Shown piece by piece: positions 5,871-63,224 of a stretch of DNA of 64,000 bases. The position numbers and the translations under genes were made by a program. The notes beneath the pieces were generated by a model, which did no database searches, was not told the origin of the DNA, and saw only the letters and a list, made by a program, of their open reading frames with translations. Source of the DNA: a virus; IMG/VR virus record IMGVR_UViG_3300021505_000001, positions 64,001 to 128,000 of that record; one strand, written 5' to 3'. Every line of letters begins with the position of its first letter. The stretch's first letter is position 1.

Positions 5871-6524
5871 ATGAAGCCAGAATTTATTGTTGCAAGAGAT
5901 TTACCTGATGCTTGGTTTCAATGTGTATACAGGTTACTTGAAATAGGACATGAGTACATTATAGATAGAGGAAGCTATAAGGGTCAAAAACGCCTTGAGT
6001 TTGATTATATAACTGTGCATATAAAATATCCTTCCACTCGTCCTTTACTTCCTGAAATTCCCCCTAATTTAAATATACCCAATCCTGTCTCGGAGGAGTA
6101 TCTTGAACAATATCTCCCATACCTTATGACGTCTGCAAAACAGCCTGATGAAGAGTATACGTATGGTCAATATCTTGAGCCACAGATCAATGAGGTTATA
6201 CGTATGTATAAAGAGGAGGGGCATGGTACAAATCAGGCTTATATGACTATAGGAGATCCTCAATCGATATATCTTGATAATCCACCTTGTTTGAGAGGTA
6301 TAGATACACGTATCAAGGATGGTAAACTACATTTTTTCGTTTATTTTCGTTCTAACGATTTGTGGAACGGATTTCCTGTAAATCTTGCTTCTATTCAGTT
6401 ATTAAAAGAGTATATGGCTTTAAGTATTGGTGTCAATGATGGGGAGGTAATTTATTCTTGTAAGGGGCTCCATCTGTACGACTATGTTTGGGAGCTTGCT
6501 AAAAAGAGAATAGGAAAAGAATAA
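5871..6524 (+). CDS. thyA: Thymidylate synthase, short archaeal-like type
   Basis: YTYG, catalytic PPCL, RSNDLWNGFPVN (Asn at the dUMP-specificity position), HLY. Confidence 0.85.
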   Translation: MKPEFIVARDLPDAWFQCVYRLLEIGHEYIIDRGSYKGQKRLEFDYITVHIKYPSTRPLLPEIPPNLNIPNPVSEEYLEQYLPYLMTSAKQPDEEYTYGQYLEPQINEVIRMYKEEGHGTNQAYMTIGDPQSIYLDNPPCLRGIDTRIKDGKLHFFVYFRSNDLWNGFPVNLASIQLLKEYMALSIGVNDGEVIYSCKGLHLYDYVWELAKKRIGKE

Positions 6525-6555
6525 TTTACCGACTATAAAAGAGTAAAGTATTAAA

Positions 6556-7689
6556 ATGAACTTTTATAAAATTTTAAATAAAGAAGAAATTCATCACGGT
6601 TTAAAATATCATGATGGATTAAATATAGACCCATTACCTTTTAATCCTAACGGAGATTGTAAGCCTGGTGGTATTTATTTTTCAAGAGAAGATATTCTAG
6701 CTTTTTTAAATTATGGAATATGGATAAGGCAGGTTACTCTTCCAGAAGGAGAAACAATATATGAAAACCCAGGTTCTCCTAAAAAATGGAAAGCTAAGAA
6801 GGTTATTTTAGGAAAGCGAAAAAGAATCAATTTAAAAGTTATCAAAGGATTAATAAAAGAAGGTGCTAATATTCATGCAGGTCATGTTGATGCTTTAATG
6901 TGGTCAGCAGAGAAAGGTTACTTTGATATAGTTAAGTATCTGGTAGAGAATGGAGCTAATATACATGCAAACGATGATTATGCTTTAAGATTATCGGCAC
7001 AAAAAGGATATTTTAATATAGTTAAGTACTTAGTAGAAAATGGTGCTAATATCCACGCTAGGAATGATTATGCTTTAAGATTAGCAGCCGAAAATGGTCA
7101 TTTTAAAATAGTTAAGTACTTAGTGGAAAATGGTGCTGATATACATGCTAGAAATGATAATGCTTTAATATGGTCAGCAGAAAAAGGTCATTTTGAAGTA
7201 GTTAAATACTTAGTGGAAAATGGTGCTGATATACATGTAAGAGGTGATTATGCTTTAAGATTAGCAGCACGAAAAGGTCATCTTGATATAGTTAAGTATA
7301 TAGTAGAGAATGGTGCTAATATCCACGCTAGAAATGATTGTGCTTTAATATGGTCAGCAGAAAAAGGTCATTTTGAAGTAGTTAAGTATTTAATAGATAA
7401 AGGTGCTAATATCCACGCTAGAAATGATTGTGCTTTAATGTGGTCGGCACGAAAAGGTTACCTTGATATAGTTAAATATCTGGTAGAGAATGGAGCTAAT
7501 ATCCACGCTAGAAATGATTATGCTTTAATATTATCAGCCTATTATGGTCATTTTGAAGTAGTTAAGTACTTGGTAGAGAATGGAGCTAATATACATACGG
7601 ATGATGATTGTGCTTTAAGATTAGCAACTGAAAAAGGTCACCTTAATGTGGTTGAGTACTTAGAAGGAAAAGGAAAGGAGAAACTATAA
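6556..7689 (+). CDS. Ankyrin-repeat protein 1 (~100-aa N-terminal domain plus 9 x 30-aa repeats)
   Basis: GANIHAxxDxALxxSAxxGxxxIVKYLVEN repeats. Confidence 0.95.
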   Translation: MNFYKILNKEEIHHGLKYHDGLNIDPLPFNPNGDCKPGGIYFSREDILAFLNYGIWIRQVTLPEGETIYENPGSPKKWKAKKVILGKRKRINLKVIKGLIKEGANIHAGHVDALMWSAEKGYFDIVKYLVENGANIHANDDYALRLSAQKGYFNIVKYLVENGANIHARNDYALRLAAENGHFKIVKYLVENGADIHARNDNALIWSAEKGHFEVVKYLVENGADIHVRGDYALRLAARKGHLDIVKYIVENGANIHARNDCALIWSAEKGHFEVVKYLIDKGANIHARNDCALMWSARKGYLDIVKYLVENGANIHARNDYALILSAYYGHFEVVKYLVENGANIHTDDDCALRLATEKGHLNVVEYLEGKGKEKL

Positions 7690-7761
7690 ATAAAAAAGGG
7701 TTTTAACTATAATAAAATATGTTTGGGAACTTGCCAAAAAAAGAATAGGAAAAGTATTAAA

Positions 7762-8232
7762 ATGAACTTTTATAAAATTTTAAATGAAGAAGAAATTCAT
7801 TGTGGCTTAGAGTATCATGATGGACTAAATATAGACCCATTACCTTTTAACCCTGCTGGAGACTGTAGACCCGGTGGTATTTATTTTTCAAGAGAAGATA
7901 TTTTAGCTTTTTTAGGTTATGGGCCTTGGATAAGACAAGTAACGATTCCAAAAGGAGAACAAATATATGAAAACCCTGGTTTTCCTAAGAAATGGAAAGC
8001 TAAGAAGGTCATCTTAGGGAAGCGAAGAAGAATTAGTTTACAAGTTATTAAAGAATTAGTAAAAGAAGGTGCTAATATTCATGCAGGTAATGATAAAGCT
8101 TTAGTATGGTCAGCACAAAAAGGTTATCTTGAAGTAGTCAAGTTTTTAATAAAAAAAGGTGCTAATATACATGCAAGAGGTGATTATGCTTTAAGATTAT
8201 TAACACAAAATGGTCATTTTAAAAGTAGTTAA
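7762..8232 (+). CDS. Ankyrin-repeat protein 2 (2 repeats, frameshifted C-terminal cap; possible pseudogene)
   Basis: Same N-terminal domain; extra A at ~8221-8224 puts VVKYLEGK out of frame. Confidence 0.8.
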   Translation: MNFYKILNEEEIHCGLEYHDGLNIDPLPFNPAGDCRPGGIYFSREDILAFLGYGPWIRQVTIPKGEQIYENPGFPKKWKAKKVILGKRRRISLQVIKELVKEGANIHAGNDKALVWSAQKGYLEVVKFLIKKGANIHARGDYALRLLTQNGHFKSS

Positions 8233-8265
8233 ATATTTAGAAGGAAAAAAAGAAAGAAATAAAAT

Positions 8266-8349
8266 ATATTTTATAGCTATCCAAAATAATTTTTTCTTGA
8301 TATACTTTAATAAACAGTATATTTTTATTAAAAGGAGAAACTATAAATA
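8266..8349 (+). repeat. 84-bp direct repeat, copy 1 (contains TTGATA-17-TATTTT and AGGAG)
   Basis: Matches 9764-9847 with one mismatch. Confidence 0.9.
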
Positions 8350-8363
8350 GGAAAGGTATTAAA

Positions 8364-9761
8364 ATGAACTTTTATAAAATTTTAAATGAAGAAGAAATTC
8401 ATCATGGCTTAAAGTATTATGATGGATTAAATATAGACCCATTACCTTTTAACCCTACTGGAAATTGCGAACCTGGTGGTATTTATTTTTCAAAAGAAGA
8501 TATTCTAGCTTTTTTAGGTTATGGGCCTTGGATTAGACAAGTAATGATTCCAGAAGGAGAACAAATATATGAAAACCCAGGTTATCCTAAAAAATGGAAA
8601 GCTAAAAAAGTTGTCTTGGGGAAAAGACGAAGAATTAATTTAAAAGTTATTAAAAAATTGGTAAAAGAAGGTGCTGATATACATGCGGGTTATGATTATG
8701 CTTTAATGTGGTCAGCAGAGAAAGGTTATCTTGATATAGTTAAGTATTTAATAGAGAATGGAGCTAATATACATGCGGGTAATGATTATGCTTTAAGATT
8801 ATCAGCGGAAAAAGGACATTTTGAAGTAGTTAAATACTTGGTAGAGAATGGAGCTAATATACATGCTAGAGATGATTATGCTTTAAGATTATCGGCACAA
8901 AAAGGATATTTTAATATAGTTAAGTATTTAATAGAGAATGGAGCTAATATACATGCAAATGGTGATTACGTTTTAAGATTATCAGTACGAAAAGGTTATC
9001 TTGATATAGTTAAGTATCTGGTAGAAAAAGGAGCTGATATACATGCGGGTAATGATTATGCTTTAAGATTATCGGTACGAAAAGGATATTTTAATATAGT
9101 TAAATACTTAGTGGAAAAAGGAGCTAATATACATGCAAATGATGATTACGTTTTAAGATTGTCGGCACGAAAAGGATATTTTAATATAGTTAAATACTTA
9201 GTGGAAAAAGGAGCTAATATACATGCAAGAGGTGATAATGCTTTAATATTGTCAGCATGTTATGGTCATCTTGATATAGTTAAGTATCTGGTAGAGAATG
9301 GAGCTGATATACATGCGGATAAGGATTATGCTTTAATGTGGTCAGCAGAAAAAGGTTACCTTGATATAGTTAAATATCTGGTAGAAAAAGGTGCTAATAT
9401 TCATGCGGGTTATGATTATGCTTTAAGATTAGCAGCTGAAAATGGTCATTTTAAAGTAGTTAAATATCTGGTAGAGAATGGAGCTAATATACATGCTAGG
9501 AATGATTATGCTTTAAGATTAGCAGCGGAAAAAGGTTACCTTGATATAGTTAAATATCTGGTAGAGAATGGAGCTAATATACATGCTAGAGATGATTATG
9601 CTTTAAGATTATCAGCGGAAAAAGGACATTTTGATATAGTTAAGTATCTGGTAGAGAATGGAGCTAATATACATGCAGGTAATGATTATGCTTTAATGAG
9701 GTCAATAGAAAAAGGTCATCTTGATATAATAAAGTACTTAGAAGGAAAAAAGAAAGGATAA
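8364..9761 (+). CDS. Ankyrin-repeat protein 3 (N-terminal domain plus 12 x 30-aa repeats)
   Basis: Paralog of 6556..7689. Confidence 0.95.
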   Translation: MNFYKILNEEEIHHGLKYYDGLNIDPLPFNPTGNCEPGGIYFSKEDILAFLGYGPWIRQVMIPEGEQIYENPGYPKKWKAKKVVLGKRRRINLKVIKKLVKEGADIHAGYDYALMWSAEKGYLDIVKYLIENGANIHAGNDYALRLSAEKGHFEVVKYLVENGANIHARDDYALRLSAQKGYFNIVKYLIENGANIHANGDYVLRLSVRKGYLDIVKYLVEKGADIHAGNDYALRLSVRKGYFNIVKYLVEKGANIHANDDYVLRLSARKGYFNIVKYLVEKGANIHARGDNALILSACYGHLDIVKYLVENGADIHADKDYALMWSAEKGYLDIVKYLVEKGANIHAGYDYALRLAAENGHFKVVKYLVENGANIHARNDYALRLAAEKGYLDIVKYLVENGANIHARDDYALRLSAEKGHFDIVKYLVENGANIHAGNDYALMRSIEKGHLDIIKYLEGKKKG

Positions 9762-9763
9762 AC

Positions 9764-9847
9764 ATATTTTATAGCTATCCAAAATAATTTTTTCTTGATA
9801 TACTTTAATAAACAGTATATTTTTATTAAAAGGAGAAGCTATAAATA
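9764..9847 (+). repeat. 84-bp direct repeat, copy 2
   Basis: Matches 8266-8349 with one mismatch. Confidence 0.9.
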
Positions 9848-9928
9848 AAAAGAGGTTTTTAACCTTGATGCGTAAAGTTTTTCTTTAAAATCAACATATG
9901 GATTTTATGTAAAATAGGGTGATTAAAA

Positions 9929-10519
9929 ATGAGAATTCCTTTATATAAGTGTAAAAATTGTTCTTGGTTCACAAGATATGATAAGAATACAAATACAGTT
10001 TTTTGTAATTACGAGTTTATAAATTCAGTACAAGTTACGGTAGATATGAATGAACAGAAAGTTGTAGACTGCCCTAAAAAACCTGTTGGAGTGACTGTTA
10101 AGATAGTAAAGGATTACAATGTAGATTTGCCTTTTTATGCTACTCCGAACTCTTCAGGTTTTGACTTAGCTGCTTCTACGATAATAATAGTGTGTCCAGG
10201 AGAAAGACTCGTAGTACCTACAGGGTTGAAACTTGAGATTCCTAATGGTTATGAACTTCAAATAAGACCTCGTTCTGGTTTGTCTTTAAAATCACCTTTA
10301 ATAATAGCAAATTCTCCTGGTACAATAGATGCTGATTATAGAGGTGAAATTGGAGTTATTATTTGGAATACAGATAATAACAAAAACTATGTTATTAATA
10401 AAGGTGATCGAATAGCTCAGGGTGTTTTATCTAAAGTAGAAAGAGCTAAATTTGTTGTGGTTGATGAATTATCAAGAACAGATAGATAGGAAGGTGGTTT
10501 TGGTCATACTGGAAGGTAA
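9929..10519 (+). CDS. dut: Trimeric dUTPase with Cys-rich N-terminal extension, interrupted by in-frame TAG at 10487-10489
   Basis: SGFDL, RPRSG, GTIDADYRGEI, GDRIAQ; motif V reads TDR-*-EGGFGHTGR-TAA. Confidence 0.9.
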
Positions 10520-10522
10520 ACA

Positions 10523-10906
10523 ATGATTTTATTAGAATCAATCCTTATTAATTCAACTTTTAATACTGTTTTTGTTCTTAGTTACTATGACGGGATAAAA
10601 GAAGAAGTTGATATTGAAAATTCAACAGTTTATTTATGGTATGAGTATGCCTTAGATATTGACGGTGAATACTGGTTAAGAATAAAAGCAAATACAAAAG
10701 AAATATTGTTTGATTACCTTAAAAATTTAATAGGGATTAGAGATTTGATTAATAACTCAGAAGTTACTTTATGTGAAAGATTGTACGAAAAATATTTTGA
10801 GTTAAAAATTGTGGATATGTTAGAATTAGTTTACCCAGAAAATGTAAGACTTGGTTATAATTTCCTAAATAAGTTAGAGAGATGTTTTAATGTATTTACA
10901 AAATAG
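10523..10906 (+). CDS. Hypothetical protein
   Basis: ORF starts 3 nt after the extended dut stop. Confidence 0.6.
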   Translation: MILLESILINSTFNTVFVLSYYDGIKEEVDIENSTVYLWYEYALDIDGEYWLRIKANTKEILFDYLKNLIGIRDLINNSEVTLCERLYEKYFELKIVDMLELVYPENVRLGYNFLNKLERCFNVFTK

Positions 10907-11093
10907 AGATTCCCATTCTGAAATAACTAAAAATAATATCGATTCCAGTCGATACTATGTATCTTATCCTGAAAATGTATGTAGTATTCATACTATAAGC
11001 TATTCAGTGATAGGTCATGCTGTATATTCAGTAACCGTATTATTTGATCAAGTAGTATAGTAAAAAAATATTAAAGTGTAGGAGGTATTTTAT

Positions 11094-11432
11094 ATGGTTA
11101 AACATACTATTTTTGGTATTGGAGGAGTATTTATTTTTATAATTTGTATATTGGTTATTACAGTAACTATAAGGTTTGGAGGTTTGTATATAGAAAGATT
11201 CTTTGCTCCGAAAGAACAATCTGTGCAAAGACAAGTTTTTGAGGAAACAAAATCTTATGTATACGGTAGTATCAGAGATATTGCCAAATATCATGAGGAA
11301 TATTTAAAGGCTGATAAAAAAGAGAAAAGAATTATTGCTAATATAGTTAAAGAAAGGTTTCCAAATTTTGACCCTGATAAAATACATAGTTATACATTAA
11401 GACAGTGGTTTGTTACTGTAAGAGGGTATTAA
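11094..11432 (+). CDS. Membrane-anchored hypothetical protein
   Basis: N-terminal TM segment, AGGAGG RBS. Confidence 0.7.
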   Translation: MVKHTIFGIGGVFIFIICILVITVTIRFGGLYIERFFAPKEQSVQRQVFEETKSYVYGSIRDIAKYHEEYLKADKKEKRIIANIVKERFPNFDPDKIHSYTLRQWFVTVRGY

Positions 11433-11446
11433 TTTAGGAGGGTATT

Positions 11447-11935
11447 ATGTTGAGAAGATTAAATAGTATATTTATTTTTGTGTGCTTGATTGTTGTGCTT
11501 TTTAATGGTTGTAATGATTCTGATCCCGATGTTGTTCAAAGAAGGCAGACAAAAAAACTGATGAATGAAATTAACAGGCAGATTGGAATGCCTAATATTG
11601 TAAACTTCCAACAGAAAAAACTCATGAAGATGATTTATGAAGAATGTGATAGGGAGAATTTGATTTGCTATGCTTATATTGTAGCTAAATATTCGGGGAA
11701 ACTTGTACCTTTAGGCAGATGTGTAGGATATGGAGTTCCTTTTTCGGCACAATACACAAATCCAGAGAGGTACTATTTGAATGGGGCTACGTTGCCACAA
11801 CCAGACCCAAATGGGATATTTATGCCTACAAGTTCGTCTGCTACTTGGTTACTTCTTATAGACCCTAAAACAGATAAACCGAGACTTGTCTATGTTGAGC
11901 CGGAGATAATTGTTTCCCCTTTCCCTTTAAGATAA
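11447..11935 (+). CDS. Putative lipoprotein
   Basis: Signal peptide ending LFNG-C; GYGVP..QYTNP, PQPDPNG motifs. Confidence 0.7.
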   Translation: MLRRLNSIFIFVCLIVVLFNGCNDSDPDVVQRRQTKKLMNEINRQIGMPNIVNFQQKKLMKMIYEECDRENLICYAYIVAKYSGKLVPLGRCVGYGVPFSAQYTNPERYYLNGATLPQPDPNGIFMPTSSSATWLLLIDPKTDKPRLVYVEPEIIVSPFPLR

Positions 11936-12149
11936 AAGGAAAAGGGGAAATTAAAGGAGAGAATGCAATGATATTTCTTGAAAAGTATTTACTTCAAATA
12001 ATGTTTCTATGGTATCTATCATATTGGATATTTTTGTTTAGGAAAGCAATAATTTCAAAGATATATAAGGTTTGTAGCTTATGTAATATCTGTGGTAAGA
12101 ATAAACTATAGAAATTACTGAGGATAATATAAGTAAAAAAGAGGCAAAA

Positions 12150-12572
12150 ATGTTTTTTAGAGACCAATATTTCTTTCTTAGTAACTTTGCTTTCTGTAAA
12201 ATTAAATTAAACGGATTATTATTTAATTCAGTTGAAACAGCTTTTCAAGCTGCTAAGACCAAAGATTTAGAGACCATGAAAACTTTTTGTACTTTAACAC
12301 CTTCGCAAGCAAAACAGAAAGGTAGACATATAAAACTAAGATCAGATTGGGAAGAAATTAAATGTTCAGTAATGTATTCTTTATTGAAGCAAAAGTTTAG
12401 TCAGCAACCATTTAAAGAATTATTAATAGATACAGGTAATATACATATCCAAGAAGATAATTATTGGGGAGATACTTTTTGGGGTGTGTGTAATGGTCAA
12501 GGAAAAAATAAATTAGGGGAATTACTAATGAAAATTAGAGAAGAATTAAAAGAAGAAATGAAGTTATTGTAA
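12150..12572 (+). CDS. NADAR family (YbiA-like) protein
   Basis: FLSNF, SVETAFQAAK, RSDWEE, KF.Q, DTFWG, G.NKLGELLM.IR. Confidence 0.9.
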   Translation: MFFRDQYFFLSNFAFCKIKLNGLLFNSVETAFQAAKTKDLETMKTFCTLTPSQAKQKGRHIKLRSDWEEIKCSVMYSLLKQKFSQQPFKELLIDTGNIHIQEDNYWGDTFWGVCNGQGKNKLGELLMKIREELKEEMKLL

Positions 12573-12607
12573 AGATTTTTGAAAAATAAGATAGATATAT
12601 GATTTTG

Positions 12608-12616
12608 TAAAACATT
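12608..12616 (+). promoter_or_regulatory. Putative late promoter motif TAAAACATT
   Basis: Exact copy of the recurrent motif, intergenic. Confidence 0.5.
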
Positions 12617-12750
12617 TTAAAGTTAGAGTGGTATATTTATGGTAGTTAACTATTTAAAAACCTTAAAGCAAAAAGGAGGGCTATTATGGATTAAAGAAAG
12701 ATTTGGATATTATTAAAGAAAGAAACTTATACAGAAAAGGAGGGTTTACT

Positions 12751-12978
12751 ATGAAGGTAACATTTTGGAGTGCTTTAGCTTTAGTAGGAGCCTTAGCACA
12801 GGATTTATCTGAAGCCTCGGCAGACAACAAAATTACAGTAACAGAAGCACTTGATATTGTGAAAGATATTTGTGAGAAGCTTGGAATCGAATTTGATGAA
12901 GTAGGATTTGATTTGGCAAAGCAAAAATTTGTTACAAACGAGAAAGATTCAAAAGGAGGTAAGGATAAAGATGATTAA
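12751..12978 (+). CDS. Hypothetical protein
   Basis: Start moved to ATG 12751 behind AAGGAGG. Confidence 0.6.
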   Translation: MKVTFWSALALVGALAQDLSEASADNKITVTEALDIVKDICEKLGIEFDEVGFDLAKQKFVTNEKDSKGGKDKDD

Positions 12979-13342
12979 AAAATCATTTTTGATGAGTTTT
13001 ATTATATTTTTTGCCTTTATATTTTTTAGTACCATGGCATTTGCGGGTGGGACTTATTTGAAATGGGACCCTCCTGCTAATGCTAATCAGGTTACTGTAG
13101 ATGGTTATAAAATATATTATGGAACTACTTCAGGGGAATATACAGGGGTTACTAATGTGGGTAATACTACTAGGTATCCTATAGGTGCTTTGGATTTACA
13201 ACCGGGCACTACTTATTATTTGGCTGTTTCTGCTTATAATAAAGCAGGAGAGAGTGAAAAGAGTAGTGAAATACAATATACTACACTAACTGCTCCTGGT
13301 TCTCCTACGGGGGTTCAAGTTATTGTAATTTCTAATAATTAG
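12971..13342 (+). CDS. Secreted fibronectin type III domain protein
   Basis: Sec signal ending AFA; LKWDPP, GYKIYYG, LQPGTTYYLAVSAYNKAGES. Confidence 0.85.
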   Translation: MIKKSFLMSFIIFFAFIFFSTMAFAGGTYLKWDPPANANQVTVDGYKIYYGTTSGEYTGVTNVGNTTRYPIGALDLQPGTTYYLAVSAYNKAGESEKSSEIQYTTLTAPGSPTGVQVIVISNN

Positions 13343-13348
13343 GTTTTA

Positions 13349-13391
13349 AACAATTGCCAAGATTTTTATTTACAAAATCTTGGCAATTGTT
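13349..13391 (+). terminator. Long hairpin, probable terminator
   Basis: AACAATTGCCAAGATTTT/AAAATCTTGGCAATTGTT. Confidence 0.65.
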
Positions 13392-13447
13392 GTTTTAGAA
13401 GAGGTTAAATTGATTATTAAAAAAGATAATAAAAGGGAAATAATATA

Positions 13448-14296
13448 ATGTGTTTAGGACATGCAATAATTAATACTATTTCAGGAGCGCATTTTATAAC
13501 CTGTGTTAATTTTAACTATAATAAAAACAATCTTGATCAATATAAAGATAAAAAAATAATTATATATGAAGGGTTTGACAAATTACATGAAGCAGGTTGG
13601 CGTTTACCAGCTAATACATCAGCACACCCACTTGAAAAAGATCATGTTTGGATTTGTCCTGAATGTTATAAGGAGTGGCTTGAGAAAAAGACGAGTTACG
13701 GCAATTTATATTTAATATCAGACTTACACTTAGGTGATCCAAGACTTGATTTATTTTCAAGGGACTTGTATTTTAATTCTGTTGATGAAATGAACAATAC
13801 TATAATTAATAATATCAATGATATTGTTAGTATAAATGATGATTTACTGATTGTAGGTGATGTTTGTTATGATAGAGAATCCGTTTCTTTGTTAGATAGA
13901 ATAAATTGTAAAAAAAGGCATCTTATTATTGGTAACTATGATGAAAATAAACTTGATCTTCTTGAAGATAAGTTTTTAACAGTTAGACAGTATTTTTCAT
14001 TTGAAATTGAATATAAAGAAAATGATTATTTTGGTATATATGTAGCTCATAAACCTGTTGATATAATAAAAGCTAAAAACAATCCTCATATAGCAGAAAA
14101 GTTAGAATTCGGAATATGTGGACATATACACGCACTTTGGAAAGTCAAGAAATATCCTGTTCCAATGGTTAACGTTTCAGCAGATATTTGGAACTTTAAA
14201 CCTATTTCCTTTTCAAGACTAATGTGGCAATACAATGGAATAATTAACTATTATGATGAGAATGTTTTCTTTGAGGACTGTAAAAATTTAAAATAG
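13448..14296 (+). CDS. Calcineurin-like metallophosphoesterase with N-terminal extension
   Basis: SDLH, GD, GNYD, HKP, GHIH motifs. Confidence 0.85.
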   Translation: MCLGHAIINTISGAHFITCVNFNYNKNNLDQYKDKKIIIYEGFDKLHEAGWRLPANTSAHPLEKDHVWICPECYKEWLEKKTSYGNLYLISDLHLGDPRLDLFSRDLYFNSVDEMNNTIINNINDIVSINDDLLIVGDVCYDRESVSLLDRINCKKRHLIIGNYDENKLDLLEDKFLTVRQYFSFEIEYKENDYFGIYVAHKPVDIIKAKNNPHIAEKLEFGICGHIHALWKVKKYPVPMVNVSADIWNFKPISFSRLMWQYNGIINYYDENVFFEDCKNLK

Positions 14297-14352
14297 GTAA
14301 TGAGATGATAAGAATGATATATACAGGAGTTATTTTTGTGGGAGGATAACCT

Positions 14353-14694
14353 ATGACACATGATGAGTACGTAGAAAGGTTAAAAGAATTAGGACAAGAA
14401 TATGATCGTAAGAAAGAACAATTGGATTTTGAGTTTGAAATAGAAAATAATCCTATTAAAGCATGTAAAATTTTAACCAACAAAATAAGTATATTAAACA
14501 AAAGAAATTCAGAATTATCATCTAAACTTATTGATTTAGAAAGAAAATTAGAACAAGCAAAGAAAGATACTATTTCTTCAGAAAGAAACTATTGTATATT
14601 TTTGTTCGAATCTATGTCTTTTTTGGATAGATTAAAATTTCTCTTCAATAAGAAGGTTGATTTTAATAAATTAAAAGTTTTGGAGTCTACATAA
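14353..14694 (+). CDS. Hypothetical coiled-coil protein
   Basis: GGAGG RBS, heptad-like composition. Confidence 0.6.
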   Translation: MTHDEYVERLKELGQEYDRKKEQLDFEFEIENNPIKACKILTNKISILNKRNSELSSKLIDLERKLEQAKKDTISSERNYCIFLFESMSFLDRLKFLFNKKVDFNKLKVLEST

Positions 14695-14730
14695 TAAAAA
14701 GTAATTTGAGAAATTTTGTATTAACTTATT

Positions 14731-14801
14731 GCCTGGATGGTGGAACTGGTAGACACAAGGGACTTAAAATCCCTCGGCTTTTAATAGCTGTGTGGGTTCG
14801 A
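14731..14801 (+). pseudogene. tRNA-Leu(UAA) truncated in the T-loop
   Basis: GCCTGGA acceptor 5' strand, D arm, AGGGA-CTTAAAA-TCCCT anticodon arm, long variable arm, GTGGG-TTCGA; the expected 3' CCCAC and TCCAGGC are absent. Confidence 0.85.
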
Positions 14802-14822
14802 CAAAAGAGAATAGGAAAATAA

Positions 14823-15035
14823 ATGAAATTAGATATAAAATATTTGAACATTGTTTGTAACGACCCCTGGTTAAAATGGAAAAAGGGTAGAAATAAAATC
14901 TTGAAAAATGCCCCTGATAAATTTAACAAATATATAGCAAAATCAATTATACAGTACCGATTGATTTTTGATACTAAAAACCTAAGAAAAACAGTTGGTG
15001 AATATCTATCAGAAGCTATAAGATTTAAATATTGA
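14823..15035 (+). CDS. Hypothetical protein
   Basis: ORF directly after the thyA-tail remnant. Confidence 0.5.
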   Translation: MKLDIKYLNIVCNDPWLKWKKGRNKILKNAPDKFNKYIAKSIIQYRLIFDTKNLRKTVGEYLSEAIRFKY

Positions 15036-15263
15036 TTTTGTGTTTCTAAGGATATAAAAAGGAGGTAAGCAAAATGATATTACCAAAAATAGCTATTTGT
15101 AAACCAGCAAAACATACAGGCAATTGGGTTTTTGACCTGAAACATATATTACATCGTTTAACTTTTGGTGTAATATTATTTGATCATGTTGAACCTGATG
15201 GAAGAACAAGTTTTGAACACCATAAAGATTTCATTATATATTATATATAATGAGGGTAATATT

Positions 15264-16324: not shown

Positions 16325-16336
16325 TTGGAGTGTATT

Positions 16337-16600
16337 ATGTTTGATTTTCTGAAGTGTTTTTTCCATATACATAAGTGGAAATATGTTTATGAAGTATTTG
16401 ATGGGATATTCCTTGGAGAATATAATCCTCAGTTTGTTAAGAAGTTTAGAATCTGTGAAAAATGTGGTGTAGCTCAGAGACGTGAAATGTTATATGAAGG
16501 TGTCTTTTGGGATACTTTATCTGTAACTGAAATAAAACTTCTAAAAAAGAAGATTAAAGATAAAGGGAATTATTATATTATCTTAAATAAGTTTGATTGA
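16337..16600 (+). CDS. Small His/Cys putative Zn-binding protein, paralog A
   Basis: HIHKWKYVY...KKFRICEKCG. Confidence 0.65.
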   Translation: MFDFLKCFFHIHKWKYVYEVFDGIFLGEYNPQFVKKFRICEKCGVAQRREMLYEGVFWDTLSVTEIKLLKKKIKDKGNYYIILNKFD

Positions 16601-16609
16601 GAGAAAGAT

Positions 16610-16876
16610 ATGTCTGTATTTAACTTTTTAAAGCGTTTTCATATACATAAGTGGAAATATGTATATGATGTGTTTGATGATAAATTCCTTGGGGAGACTT
16701 GTCCACAATTTGTTAAGAAGTTTAGAATCTGCGAAAAATGTGGTGTAGCTCAAGAATATCAAGTAGTTCCAAAAGAGGGTACTTATAATGAATTATCTAT
16801 ATTTAAGACTGTTATATTGAAACGGAAGATAGAGGATATGGGAGATTACTATGTTCTTAAAAGAAGTTTTAGATAG
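16610..16876 (+). CDS. Small His/Cys putative Zn-binding protein, paralog B
   Basis: Tandem paralog of the preceding gene. Confidence 0.65.
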   Translation: MSVFNFLKRFHIHKWKYVYDVFDDKFLGETCPQFVKKFRICEKCGVAQEYQVVPKEGTYNELSIFKTVILKRKIEDMGDYYVLKRSFR

Positions 16877-20320: not shown

Positions 20321-20459
20321 TTATATATACTTGTTAAAATTGAATATTATTTGTATATTTAATTTGAAAAGGAATTTTAACTATAATAATTGAATTTATT
20401 TAGTTATTACAGTTAATTATAATAATTACTTCATGTTTAAGTTTAACTAAATTGTTTAA

Positions 20460-61851: not shown

Positions 61852-62358
61852 TTATTTATTAATAGTAATAGTGTAACTAATGTTAAATGAAACATTTCCT
61901 GGAACAATTCTTACACCTTTACCACTACTTGGAGCTGTTGTAGCAAATACAGAATTAGATAATGAATCAGAAGTTGTTATAATAACTTCTTTTTCAGCAC
62001 CGGAATCATTCGCAACATAAATTAATTCTATCTTTGATAAATAAGCATCAGCAGCAAGATTAACTGTTGATACTGTATTTGCATTAATAGTATAACTTGT
62101 TTGAGTTTCAAACCAGTCCAATTTAGATACAACTGTTTCCGATACAATATTATTATCAATATCATAAACTTTAGCTTTTATGCCTGTAATAACTCCACCT
62201 TGATCAGCACCTGTTACAGTTCCATTCATCATATCAAAGAATAAAAGGGCATAAAATTCTTGAGTAACATCTGCATTTTTAAAAGTATTAACTTCAATGT
62301 CAAACTCACCTTGAGTTACACGAATAAATGAAGAAATATCCAAATTTTTAAGTTGCAT
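61852..62358 (-). CDS. Putative virion structural protein
   Basis: Own late motif, AGGAGG RBS. Confidence 0.55.
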   Translation of the reverse strand: MQLKNLDISSFIRVTQGEFDIEVNTFKNADVTQEFYALLFFDMMNGTVTGADQGGVITGIKAKVYDIDNNIVSETVVSKLDWFETQTSYTINANTVSTVNLAADAYLSKIELIYVANDSGAEKEVIITTSDSLSNSVFATTAPSSGKGVRIVPGNVSFNISYTITINK

Positions 62359-62390
62359 TTAAGTTTCCTCCTTAAATCTTGTTTTCCATT

Positions 62391-62399
62391 AATGTTTTA
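62391..62399 (-). promoter_or_regulatory. Late promoter motif TAAAACATT
   Basis: 33 bp upstream of the 62358 start. Confidence 0.65.
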
Positions 62400-62795
62400 A
62401 ACAAAAAGTAATTTCAATTTAAAGTTTCTAAAAATGTTTTCTCCTGTAAGCTTATAATATTCCAAAAAATCATCACAATATATTTTTATTTTAAATGGTA
62501 TAATTTGGGTGGTTCCTATAGCACTAATTGTTTCATTTTTTTCGATAAATTTAAACCAAGAATCCCCATTCCATGATAAGCGAACTCGAATTGTAGTCAT
62601 CTGTCCTGAAACTTCTATTTTACACCACTCAATTTCTATATCATTTACAATAATATAAAGATCCTGTATATAAGTGATTGTTTTTTGGGAATCTTTTAAC
62701 CTAAAAGTTTTCGCTATTGGATTTATAAAATCCCCTGTAGATACTAAATCATAATCAGGTTCATTGTTCATTCCTATATAGACACCAGAAAGCAT
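62397..62795 (-). CDS. Putative structural protein
   Basis: Beta-rich, in structural cluster. Confidence 0.5.
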   Translation of the reverse strand: MLSGVYIGMNNEPDYDLVSTGDFINPIAKTFRLKDSQKTITYIQDLYIIVNDIEIEWCKIEVSGQMTTIRVRLSWNGDSWFKFIEKNETISAIGTTQIIPFKIKIYCDDFLEYYKLTGENIFRNFKLKLLFV

Positions 62796-62831
62796 TTGTT
62801 TCCTCTTTATTAAAGGTTGTTTGTTAAACTT

Positions 62832-63224
62832 CTAACTATCATAAACATTTATAGCCACAGAAGCATGATGTTTTTTTATTATGTATATGTTATTCAAAAC
62901 ATTCCATTTATATTTAAACATTAAATGCTGTGTATTATTTGTAGCATCTATATTCGTATAAATTATCTGTTTCCCCCAATGAGTTGGATTTCCAATTAAA
63001 TCAGTTGGAGATATATATAAAGAAACCCCTGTTACAGTTTCATTTTCAACAAGTAGTGTTAATGAAGGGTATAAATCTTCGGTAACAACTAAATATAAAG
63101 TTCCTTCCAAAGATGTAGTTCCATCCCCAACAGTTCCATCTACAGTTACCGAATCATGCACAAAATTATTCCAATCCACTTTATTATAAGGTTCAAAATT
63201 ATTTGTAGCTATAAATACAGCCAT
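62832..63224 (-). CDS. Putative structural protein
   Basis: Beta-rich, GAGG RBS. Confidence 0.5.
   Translation of the reverse strand: MAVFIATNNFEPYNKVDWNNFVHDSVTVDGTVGDGTTSLEGTLYLVVTEDLYPSLTLLVENETVTGVSLYISPTDLIGNPTHWGKQIIYTNIDATNNTQHLMFKYKWNVLNNIYIIKKHHASVAINVYDS

Follow-up and report, generated by a model that had tools for sequence, protein, structure and literature searches.

Gene accordions are known from poxvirus K3L, and ankyrin multigene families from pox- and giant viruses. tRNA genes serve as integration sites of integrase-bearing elements, with crossovers in the T-loop and the anticodon loop. For tailed phages, mosaic joints are said, in the model of Hendrix and Hatfull, to lie at gene boundaries and to arise by illegitimate or short-homology recombination. 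PeSL (promoter-early stem-loop)-mediated modular shuffling has been described in the hyperplastic regions of T4-type phages (PMC2839356, PMC4122927), and homeologous recombination by phage recombinases has also been reported (PMC2327257). Here we describe a 64,000-nucleotide stretch (the window; bases 64001–128000 of the linear virus record IMGVR_UViG_3300021505_000001, 155.7 kb, estimated to be 60% complete; G+C content of the window, 30%), in which the 3′ end of a thymidylate synthase gene, thyA, recurs in front of one of three tandem ankyrin genes (ank1, ank2 and ank3) and again at a broken tRNA gene 8.3 kb away. With roughly even confidence, we interpret these repeats as scars left in a hyperplastic region of a large phage genome by unequal and mostly illegitimate recombination. 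The source gene and the copies of its tail are as follows, in window coordinates.

5871–6524, + strand: thyA, a short thymidylate synthase of 217 aa (PF00303, E 4e-11)
6483–6519, + strand: tail of the resident thyA, YVWELAKKRIGK, source of the repeated border, which includes the 17-mer 6502–6518 (repeat family D15)
7718–7754, + strand: thyA-tail relic, 34/37 identical to 6483–6519, reading on as GKVLK-stop
14803–14819, + strand: exact copy of thyA 6502–6518, in the thyA frame, followed by TAA (14820–14822)

An earlier note on this DNA had reported the recurrence of the thyA tail before ank2, and we found it as described: the relic carries three mismatches, each at a third position and synonymous (non-synonymous divergence, dN, of 0), and it reads on to a TGA (7763–7765) that overlaps the ank2 ATG at 7762. 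This copy is not due to chance, and the relic is a duplication scar. The encoded KRIGK of the resident tail aligns with the LRTGK and KAIGK ends of thyA homologs, indicating that the tail is native thyA coding sequence. An upstream extension of the relic was looked for, and no thyA-like sequence lies upstream of 7718; RNA structure as a reason for its conservation was ruled out (z −0.6). As a side observation, ank1 and ank2 lie in one reading frame with a single TAA and 24 open codons between them (7687–7761), probably by coincidence.

The exact 17-mer at 14803–14819, followed by TAA ATG, was also confirmed, and a copy with one mismatch lies within the relic at 7737–7753. In all three tail copies homology ends at the same nucleotide, right after the Gly-Lys codons, and the continuations differ: E-stop in the resident gene, VLK-stop running into ank2, and a stop followed by the ATG of an unrelated open reading frame (ORF), orf14823. 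The copies differ at four positions in total, 4/4 of which are synonymous in the thyA frame. A more distant thyA homolog (locus L012, 65% identical) terminates exactly in ...IGK-stop, like the copy at the tRNA break, and beyond the conserved core the tails of homologs vary freely. The features on both sides of the 17-mer are these.

14731–14802, + strand: stump of a tRNA-Leu(UAA) gene, its 5′-terminal 72 nt up to a break in the T-loop (the Rfam score of 21.8 bits misses the cut-off)
14823–15250, + strand: orf14823 (70 aa) and orf15074 (58 aa), a two-gene cassette

The 17-mer copy starts directly at the tRNA break and ends directly before the TAA-ATG of orf14823. Its significance was evaluated in several ways: 0/100 shuffles reached the observed four matches at up to 2 mismatches; about 0.5% of the 42-nt windows of the genome had an orphan match and 1.7% any match; and the 9-mer core of the 17-mer occurs 6 times in 155 kb, 4 of them at these borders, so that a common ribosome-binding leader of the phage was rejected as its origin. 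Taken with the leader starting exactly at the tRNA break, the rarity of such matches and of the core makes a chance origin of the 17-mer unlikely. The most economical alternative is that only the 37-nt relic is a thyA copy, left by one tandem duplication, with the piece before ank3 an inherited leader, the 17-mer a chance or convergent purine-rich leader, and no hotspot at all. Simulated sequences contained about 1–1.4 exact repeats of at least 17 nt per window and the genome holds about 14 orphan repeat pairs, similarity to the thyA tail at the tRNA break did not extend beyond the 17 nt on alignment, and the leaders of the two orf14823 relatives described below hold parts of the motif with no thyA nearby, all of which would fit this alternative. 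Nevertheless, we consider it rather unlikely, as the probability of a chance match between just this gene end and a 20-nt leader is about 0.1–1% even after allowing for the free search of the earlier note, and the copy keeps the thyA frame, has its stop exactly at the homolog's end and begins exactly at the tRNA break.

The break in the T-loop resembles a tRNA integration site. Unlike such a site, this one retains the 5′ half of the tRNA gene instead of the 3′ half; no displaced 3′ half was found in the record in a search allowing up to 3 mismatches, and no tyrosine integrase (PF00589) was matched in the 155.7 kb of the record, which is about 60% complete. ARAGORN called no tRNA in the window or in the whole record. 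An integron-like cassette array was rejected as well, since there is no integrase and the borders are patchworks of flanking sequence rather than a common imperfect inverted repeat. The structure is thus neither integron-like nor integrase-driven. In all four runs, contigs of other organisms match the stump (14729–14802) at ≥90% identity up to 14802, and one contig of run X1 continues beyond this point into an intact tRNA 3′ end and AT-rich sequence, so a tRNA-Leu gene very similar to the stump is present in the same community.

Among 5.8 billion proteins, orf14823 had two relatives only (loci L139 and L140), and in both the homology to the window begins 2–8 nt before the orf14823 ATG. L139 (2414–2839) shares orf14823 and orf15074 and no further sequence, at 85% nucleotide identity (window 14821–15235), and in L140 (829–1059) the match, of 86%, is limited to orf14823 (to 15045). 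Neither locus has flanks related to those of the window: L139 has ClpP, HNH and an intein-bearing gene, and L140 an uncharacterised ORF. The orf14823 cassette is thus one that moves between phages which are otherwise unrelated. The locus resembles the mosaic joints of tailed phages in having new joints at gene borders, short relics of a former neighbour and a two-gene cassette at 85% identity in otherwise unrelated genomes; it is unlike them in that the same gene end was apparently used at least twice within one genome.

The borders around the ankyrin genes turned out to be patchworks of three short modules, namely the thyA tail (T), an 84-nt element or its end (D) and the ankyrin leader, and the joints between modules sit at 4–6-nt microhomologies.

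6520–6555, + strand: thyA stop and a 29-nt spacer that is missing from the ank2 copy, then the ank leader (from alignment)
7677–7717, + strand: remnant of the end of D (7677–7707, also at 9832–9863) and 10 nt of filler; left joint of the first duplication
8266–8349, + strand: element D2, 84 nt, with a −35/−10-like pair; 83/84 identical to D3, 74 nt of it exact
8347–8363, + strand: leader of ank3, fused to D2 through a shared AATA (4 nt); IGKVLK-stop when read together with 8364–8367
9764–9847, + strand: element D3, 84 nt, upstream of the dUTPase gene dut

At ank1 the shared part of the ank leader is limited to its last 15 nt (6545–6559), and at the thyA–ank1 border the 4-nt repeat AAAG stands on either side of the 29-nt spacer indel. 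Behind ank1, D is reduced to its last 31 nt, followed by ten filler bases and then by T joined directly to the leader; a deletion between paired 6-nt repeats removed the remainder of D and lengthened the ank1 reading frame. The ank3 leader (8347–8367) differs from that of ank2 by one synonymous change, and the GKVLK-stop reading that the earlier note gave for both ank2 and ank3 is correct. Its wider statement, that the thyA end borders every ankyrin gene, holds in part: the sequence that it pointed to before ank1 is present, but that piece is the ank leader, with no evidence of a thyA copy. The 10-nt filler at the joint of ank1 and the relic belongs to one of three exact occurrences (7701–7717, 13510–13526 and 20375–20389) of an AT-rich 15–17-nt word that contains TATAAT.

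D2 and D3 both carry a consensus −35/−10 pair, a candidate promoter on sequence grounds, and a family of similar promoter-like sites exists elsewhere in the genome. The conservation of D is far above that of the coding DNA (0 differences in 74 nt vs 10% divergence, p 0.0004), indicating that conversion or constraint acts on the borders in any case. These elements recall PeSL (PMC2839356, PMC4122927) in that a small repeated element with a putative sigma-70-like promoter stands on both sides of a non-essential cassette (D2-ank3-D3) and is far less diverged than the genes, and in that strains differ in the region by insertions, deletions and replacements. Unlike PeSL, D has no terminator stem-loop (none was found in it or beside it, and the fold of 8255–8375 reached a z of −1.8 only), two full copies only are present here, and the thyA-tail repeats are coding scars, not regulatory cassettes.

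The genes that these borders separate share a common architecture and differ in length.

6556–7689, + strand: ank1, a 100-aa N-terminal domain (N-domain) and about nine ankyrin repeats of 30 aa (Pfam Ank families, 90-nt period)
7762–8232, + strand: ank2, N-domain and about two repeats, 156 aa, shortened by an extra A near 8221
8364–9761, + strand: ank3, N-domain and about 12 repeats, 465 aa

Profile searches of Pfam, PHROGs and PDB assigned the N-domain (6556–6855, 7762–8061 and 8364–8663) to no sequence family. Its structure was modelled with a pLDDT (predicted local distance difference test score) of 91, and nearly all of the 50 best structural matches were proteins of the ADP-ribosyltransferase (ART) fold, including Arr, Tpt1, Rhs-, DarT- and diphtheria-type toxins and PARPs, although the scores were middling (best Z 6.1; Foldseek E ≥ 0.7). 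The N-domain of these ankyrin proteins is accordingly predicted to be ART-like. Atlas models sharing the domain are ankyrin proteins of phages and giant viruses. The architecture recurs in more than 100 metagenomic stretches, often in tandem arrays (loci L035, L037, L040, L041 and L052 among them) with as many as six copies in 6 kb; in the 185,579 cellular species genomes the family had one match only. At the other loci the leaders of the ankyrin genes are ordinary, and thyA stood beside the family at 0 of about 80 loci.

In a tree of 97 N-domains, ank1, ank2 and ank3 formed one clade (support 89/92), recovered in 92% of bootstrap trees, in which ank2 and ank3 are sisters, and the arrays of other contigs likewise clustered by lineage. 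The three ankyrin genes are a lineage-specific tandem expansion, and the tree points to its having been local. The sister grouping of ank2 and ank3 also matches the event order implied by the joints. The copies are old: dN was 0.09 and synonymous divergence (dS) 0.50 for ank1/ank2, and dS was 0.31 for ank2/ank3. The array is like a gene accordion in consisting of head-to-tail paralogs of one effector-like gene that are mutually closest relatives, in its illegitimate joints that carry a piece of a neighbouring gene (the 37-nt thyA tail after the ank1 3′ flank, at 7718) and in its shortened copies or copies of varying length. It differs in belonging to a bacteriophage and in the age of the copies (dS 0.3–0.5), which are not recent amplicons.

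The earlier note had gone further and proposed that the cassettes were captured from related phages rather than duplicated locally. In that event, diverged alleles would have come from related co-infecting phages by crossovers at the thyA terminus, each bringing its own functional thyA tail, and the ankyrin genes would be stacked orthologs rather than paralogs. The tail copies do behave as expected inside a working gene, since every difference among them is synonymous and their dS (0.64, with a dN of 0) is on par with the dS of ank1/ank2; the relic has changed less than neutral DNA of its age should have, a GKVLK-stop would be tolerated given the natural variation of thyA tails, and cassette exchange between unrelated phages occurs at this locus, namely with orf14823. 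However, this pattern rests on 3–4 sites: with three of three differences synonymous, p is 0.03, and counting transitions only raises it to 0.08. In the relic, the purine-rich half is the ank2 ribosome-binding leader and probably constrained for that reason, and the two differences in the other 18 nt are not significant. The synonymous-only pattern is thus weak support for capture. The alleged variant thyA alleles did not turn up, as a GKVLK tail was present in 0/22 viral thyA loci and 0/120 best thyA proteins (142 homologs together), and the GKVLK-stop/ATG junction was found neither in IMG/VR nor in the 185,579 GTDB species genomes. Nor did any collection searched hold a thyA–ank adjacency, and the three genes are monophyletic. 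In addition, the joint itself is illegitimate, and sister copies, which are abundant, are likelier to form one than are co-infecting genomes, which are rare and diverged.

Capture of the ankyrin cassettes from diverged phages is therefore, in our view, possible and yet doubtful, their transfer from other phages is weakly supported, and partners of the same lineage are favoured for the ankyrin genes. What survives of the earlier proposal is that the thyA terminus was a joint more than once, as judged from the loss of homology at the same base with three different continuations; its attribution to capture from other phages is not supported for the ankyrin cassettes. Repeated use of one gene end in this genome is a moderately supported hint. 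The boldest version, in which the thyA terminus is a short recombination linker by which co-infecting phages exchange and stack cassettes, the array a set of diverged ART-like/ankyrin effector alleles from different genomes and the tRNA stump the product of one inter-genome crossover, strikes us as improbable.

The history that we favour, in which unequal and mostly illegitimate recombination built the region, runs as follows. The last codons of thyA (...KKRIGK) double as the translation leader of the next gene, so that a crossover keeping the downstream gene and its leader carries a piece of the thyA tail along. As the joints show, the unit of the first duplication began 42 nt inside thyA and left the 37-nt relic before ank2. 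The ank2/ank3 pair arose later, and at its joint the 84-nt promoter-like element and a trimmed leader are fused by an overlap of 4 nt; small deletions between 4–6-nt repeats account for the 29-nt spacer difference and for the missing 84-nt element behind ank1. The next steps are inferred. A second scar would be the 17-nt copy in front of orf14823: thyA may once have ended ...GK-stop directly before orf14823, an adjacency that the 17-mer probably records, and an 8.3-kb block from ank1 to the tRNA-Leu stump may have been inserted between the two by one unequal crossover, with one partner cut in the tRNA T-loop and the other 20 nt before the end of a thyA directly preceding orf14823.

Several observations weigh against this history. 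A neutral relic as old as the ank1/ank2 split should have accumulated about nine changes, of which three are seen (probability of three or fewer changes, 0.005; of no change at non-synonymous sites, 0.0007), so that constraint or gene conversion must have acted, unless the joint is younger and was formed between diverged partners. The 27 nt before the start codons of ank1 and ank3 match at 22/27 positions in the same register, which fits a simple two-step history poorly and leaves the exact order of events not recoverable. As to the second scar, the orf14823 leader of L139 shares 11/11 of the first bases of the 17-mer (with one extra base) though ClpP, not thyA, lies upstream there, so the 17-mer may be an old leader of the cassette rather than a fresh scar, and no genome was found with thyA directly before orf14823.

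The sequence of the window is present in one hydrothermal-vent metagenome run and in four runs of a second study. A chimeric contig produced by the repeats is very improbable. The ankyrin region is indeed highly repetitive, Logan contigs break inside it, and one contig path of run X1 skips ank3 by joining 8265 to 9764 across the 74-nt repeat. On the other hand, a separate Logan contig of X1 spans the relic joint (7473–7780) with no difference, pieces of ank2, ank3 and their flanks recur in the runs of the second study, and a 203-kb contig carrying the same orf14823 is on record. The 8265–9764 join is what D2 × D3 recombination would yield, or else the assembler chose that path; it hints at the copy-number change in the population that is typical of a gene accordion. 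In run X4, the depth over ank1 (6736–7737) was 3–23 as compared with about 340 on the flanks, as might be seen if a strain lacked ank1; no contig joins across, and this was not used as evidence. Remaining contig joints with only 20–22 letters on one side were ignored. Cassette-level variation is also seen apart from the ankyrin genes: runs X2 and X3 contained a variant without 10513–11075 (563 nt, two small ORFs) and with one extra G, accounting for about one third of the local depth in X2 and three quarters in X3.

Syntenic relatives of the region were sought among viral contigs with thyA, dut, the phosphoesterase and orf14823, and only distant or non-syntenic loci were obtained. Exact look-ups of dut and ank2 gave no match, and those of thyA and orf14823 gave only short Logan contigs from one sample. 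The closest database relatives of the thyA protein are 85–88% identical, and several of them are named thymidylate synthase in Desulfobacterota metagenome-assembled genomes. On its right the ankyrin array adjoins the following gene.

9929–10489, + strand: dut, dUTPase (PF00692)

A paralog of dut, 54% identical, lies just upstream of the window (G000 62276–62845). The window copy stops at a TAG (10487–10519 region) with dUTPase motif V (GGFGHTG) in frame behind the stop, and around this motif (window 10487–10519) it has 20 exact bases in common with the paralog. After dut come small ORFs, a NADAR gene (12150–12572), a phosphoesterase gene (13448–14296), orf14353, the tRNA stump and orf14823. 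The NADAR-domain gene, of an ADP-ribose processing family, is located 2.4 kb downstream of the ART-like ankyrin genes. Beyond the cassette, two paralogous small ORFs lie side by side (16325–16600 and 16610–16876) and share several exact 20–23-nt blocks at a spacing of 276 nt; this pair is another local duplication in the region.

Whether the joints of phage mosaics are made at random by illegitimate recombination and then selected, or by recombination at short shared border sequences, is an old question, and scars that keep the sequence of both partners are rare natural records of single events. Those described here give an order of events and predict an ancestral thyA–orf14823 adjacency. By itself the finding is a well-documented example of recombination scars in ordinary phage genome growth, with no new principle. 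The way in which a phage-specific ART-like/ankyrin family is amplified in tandem, as it is in many uncultured phages, bears on how phage effector repertoires diversify.

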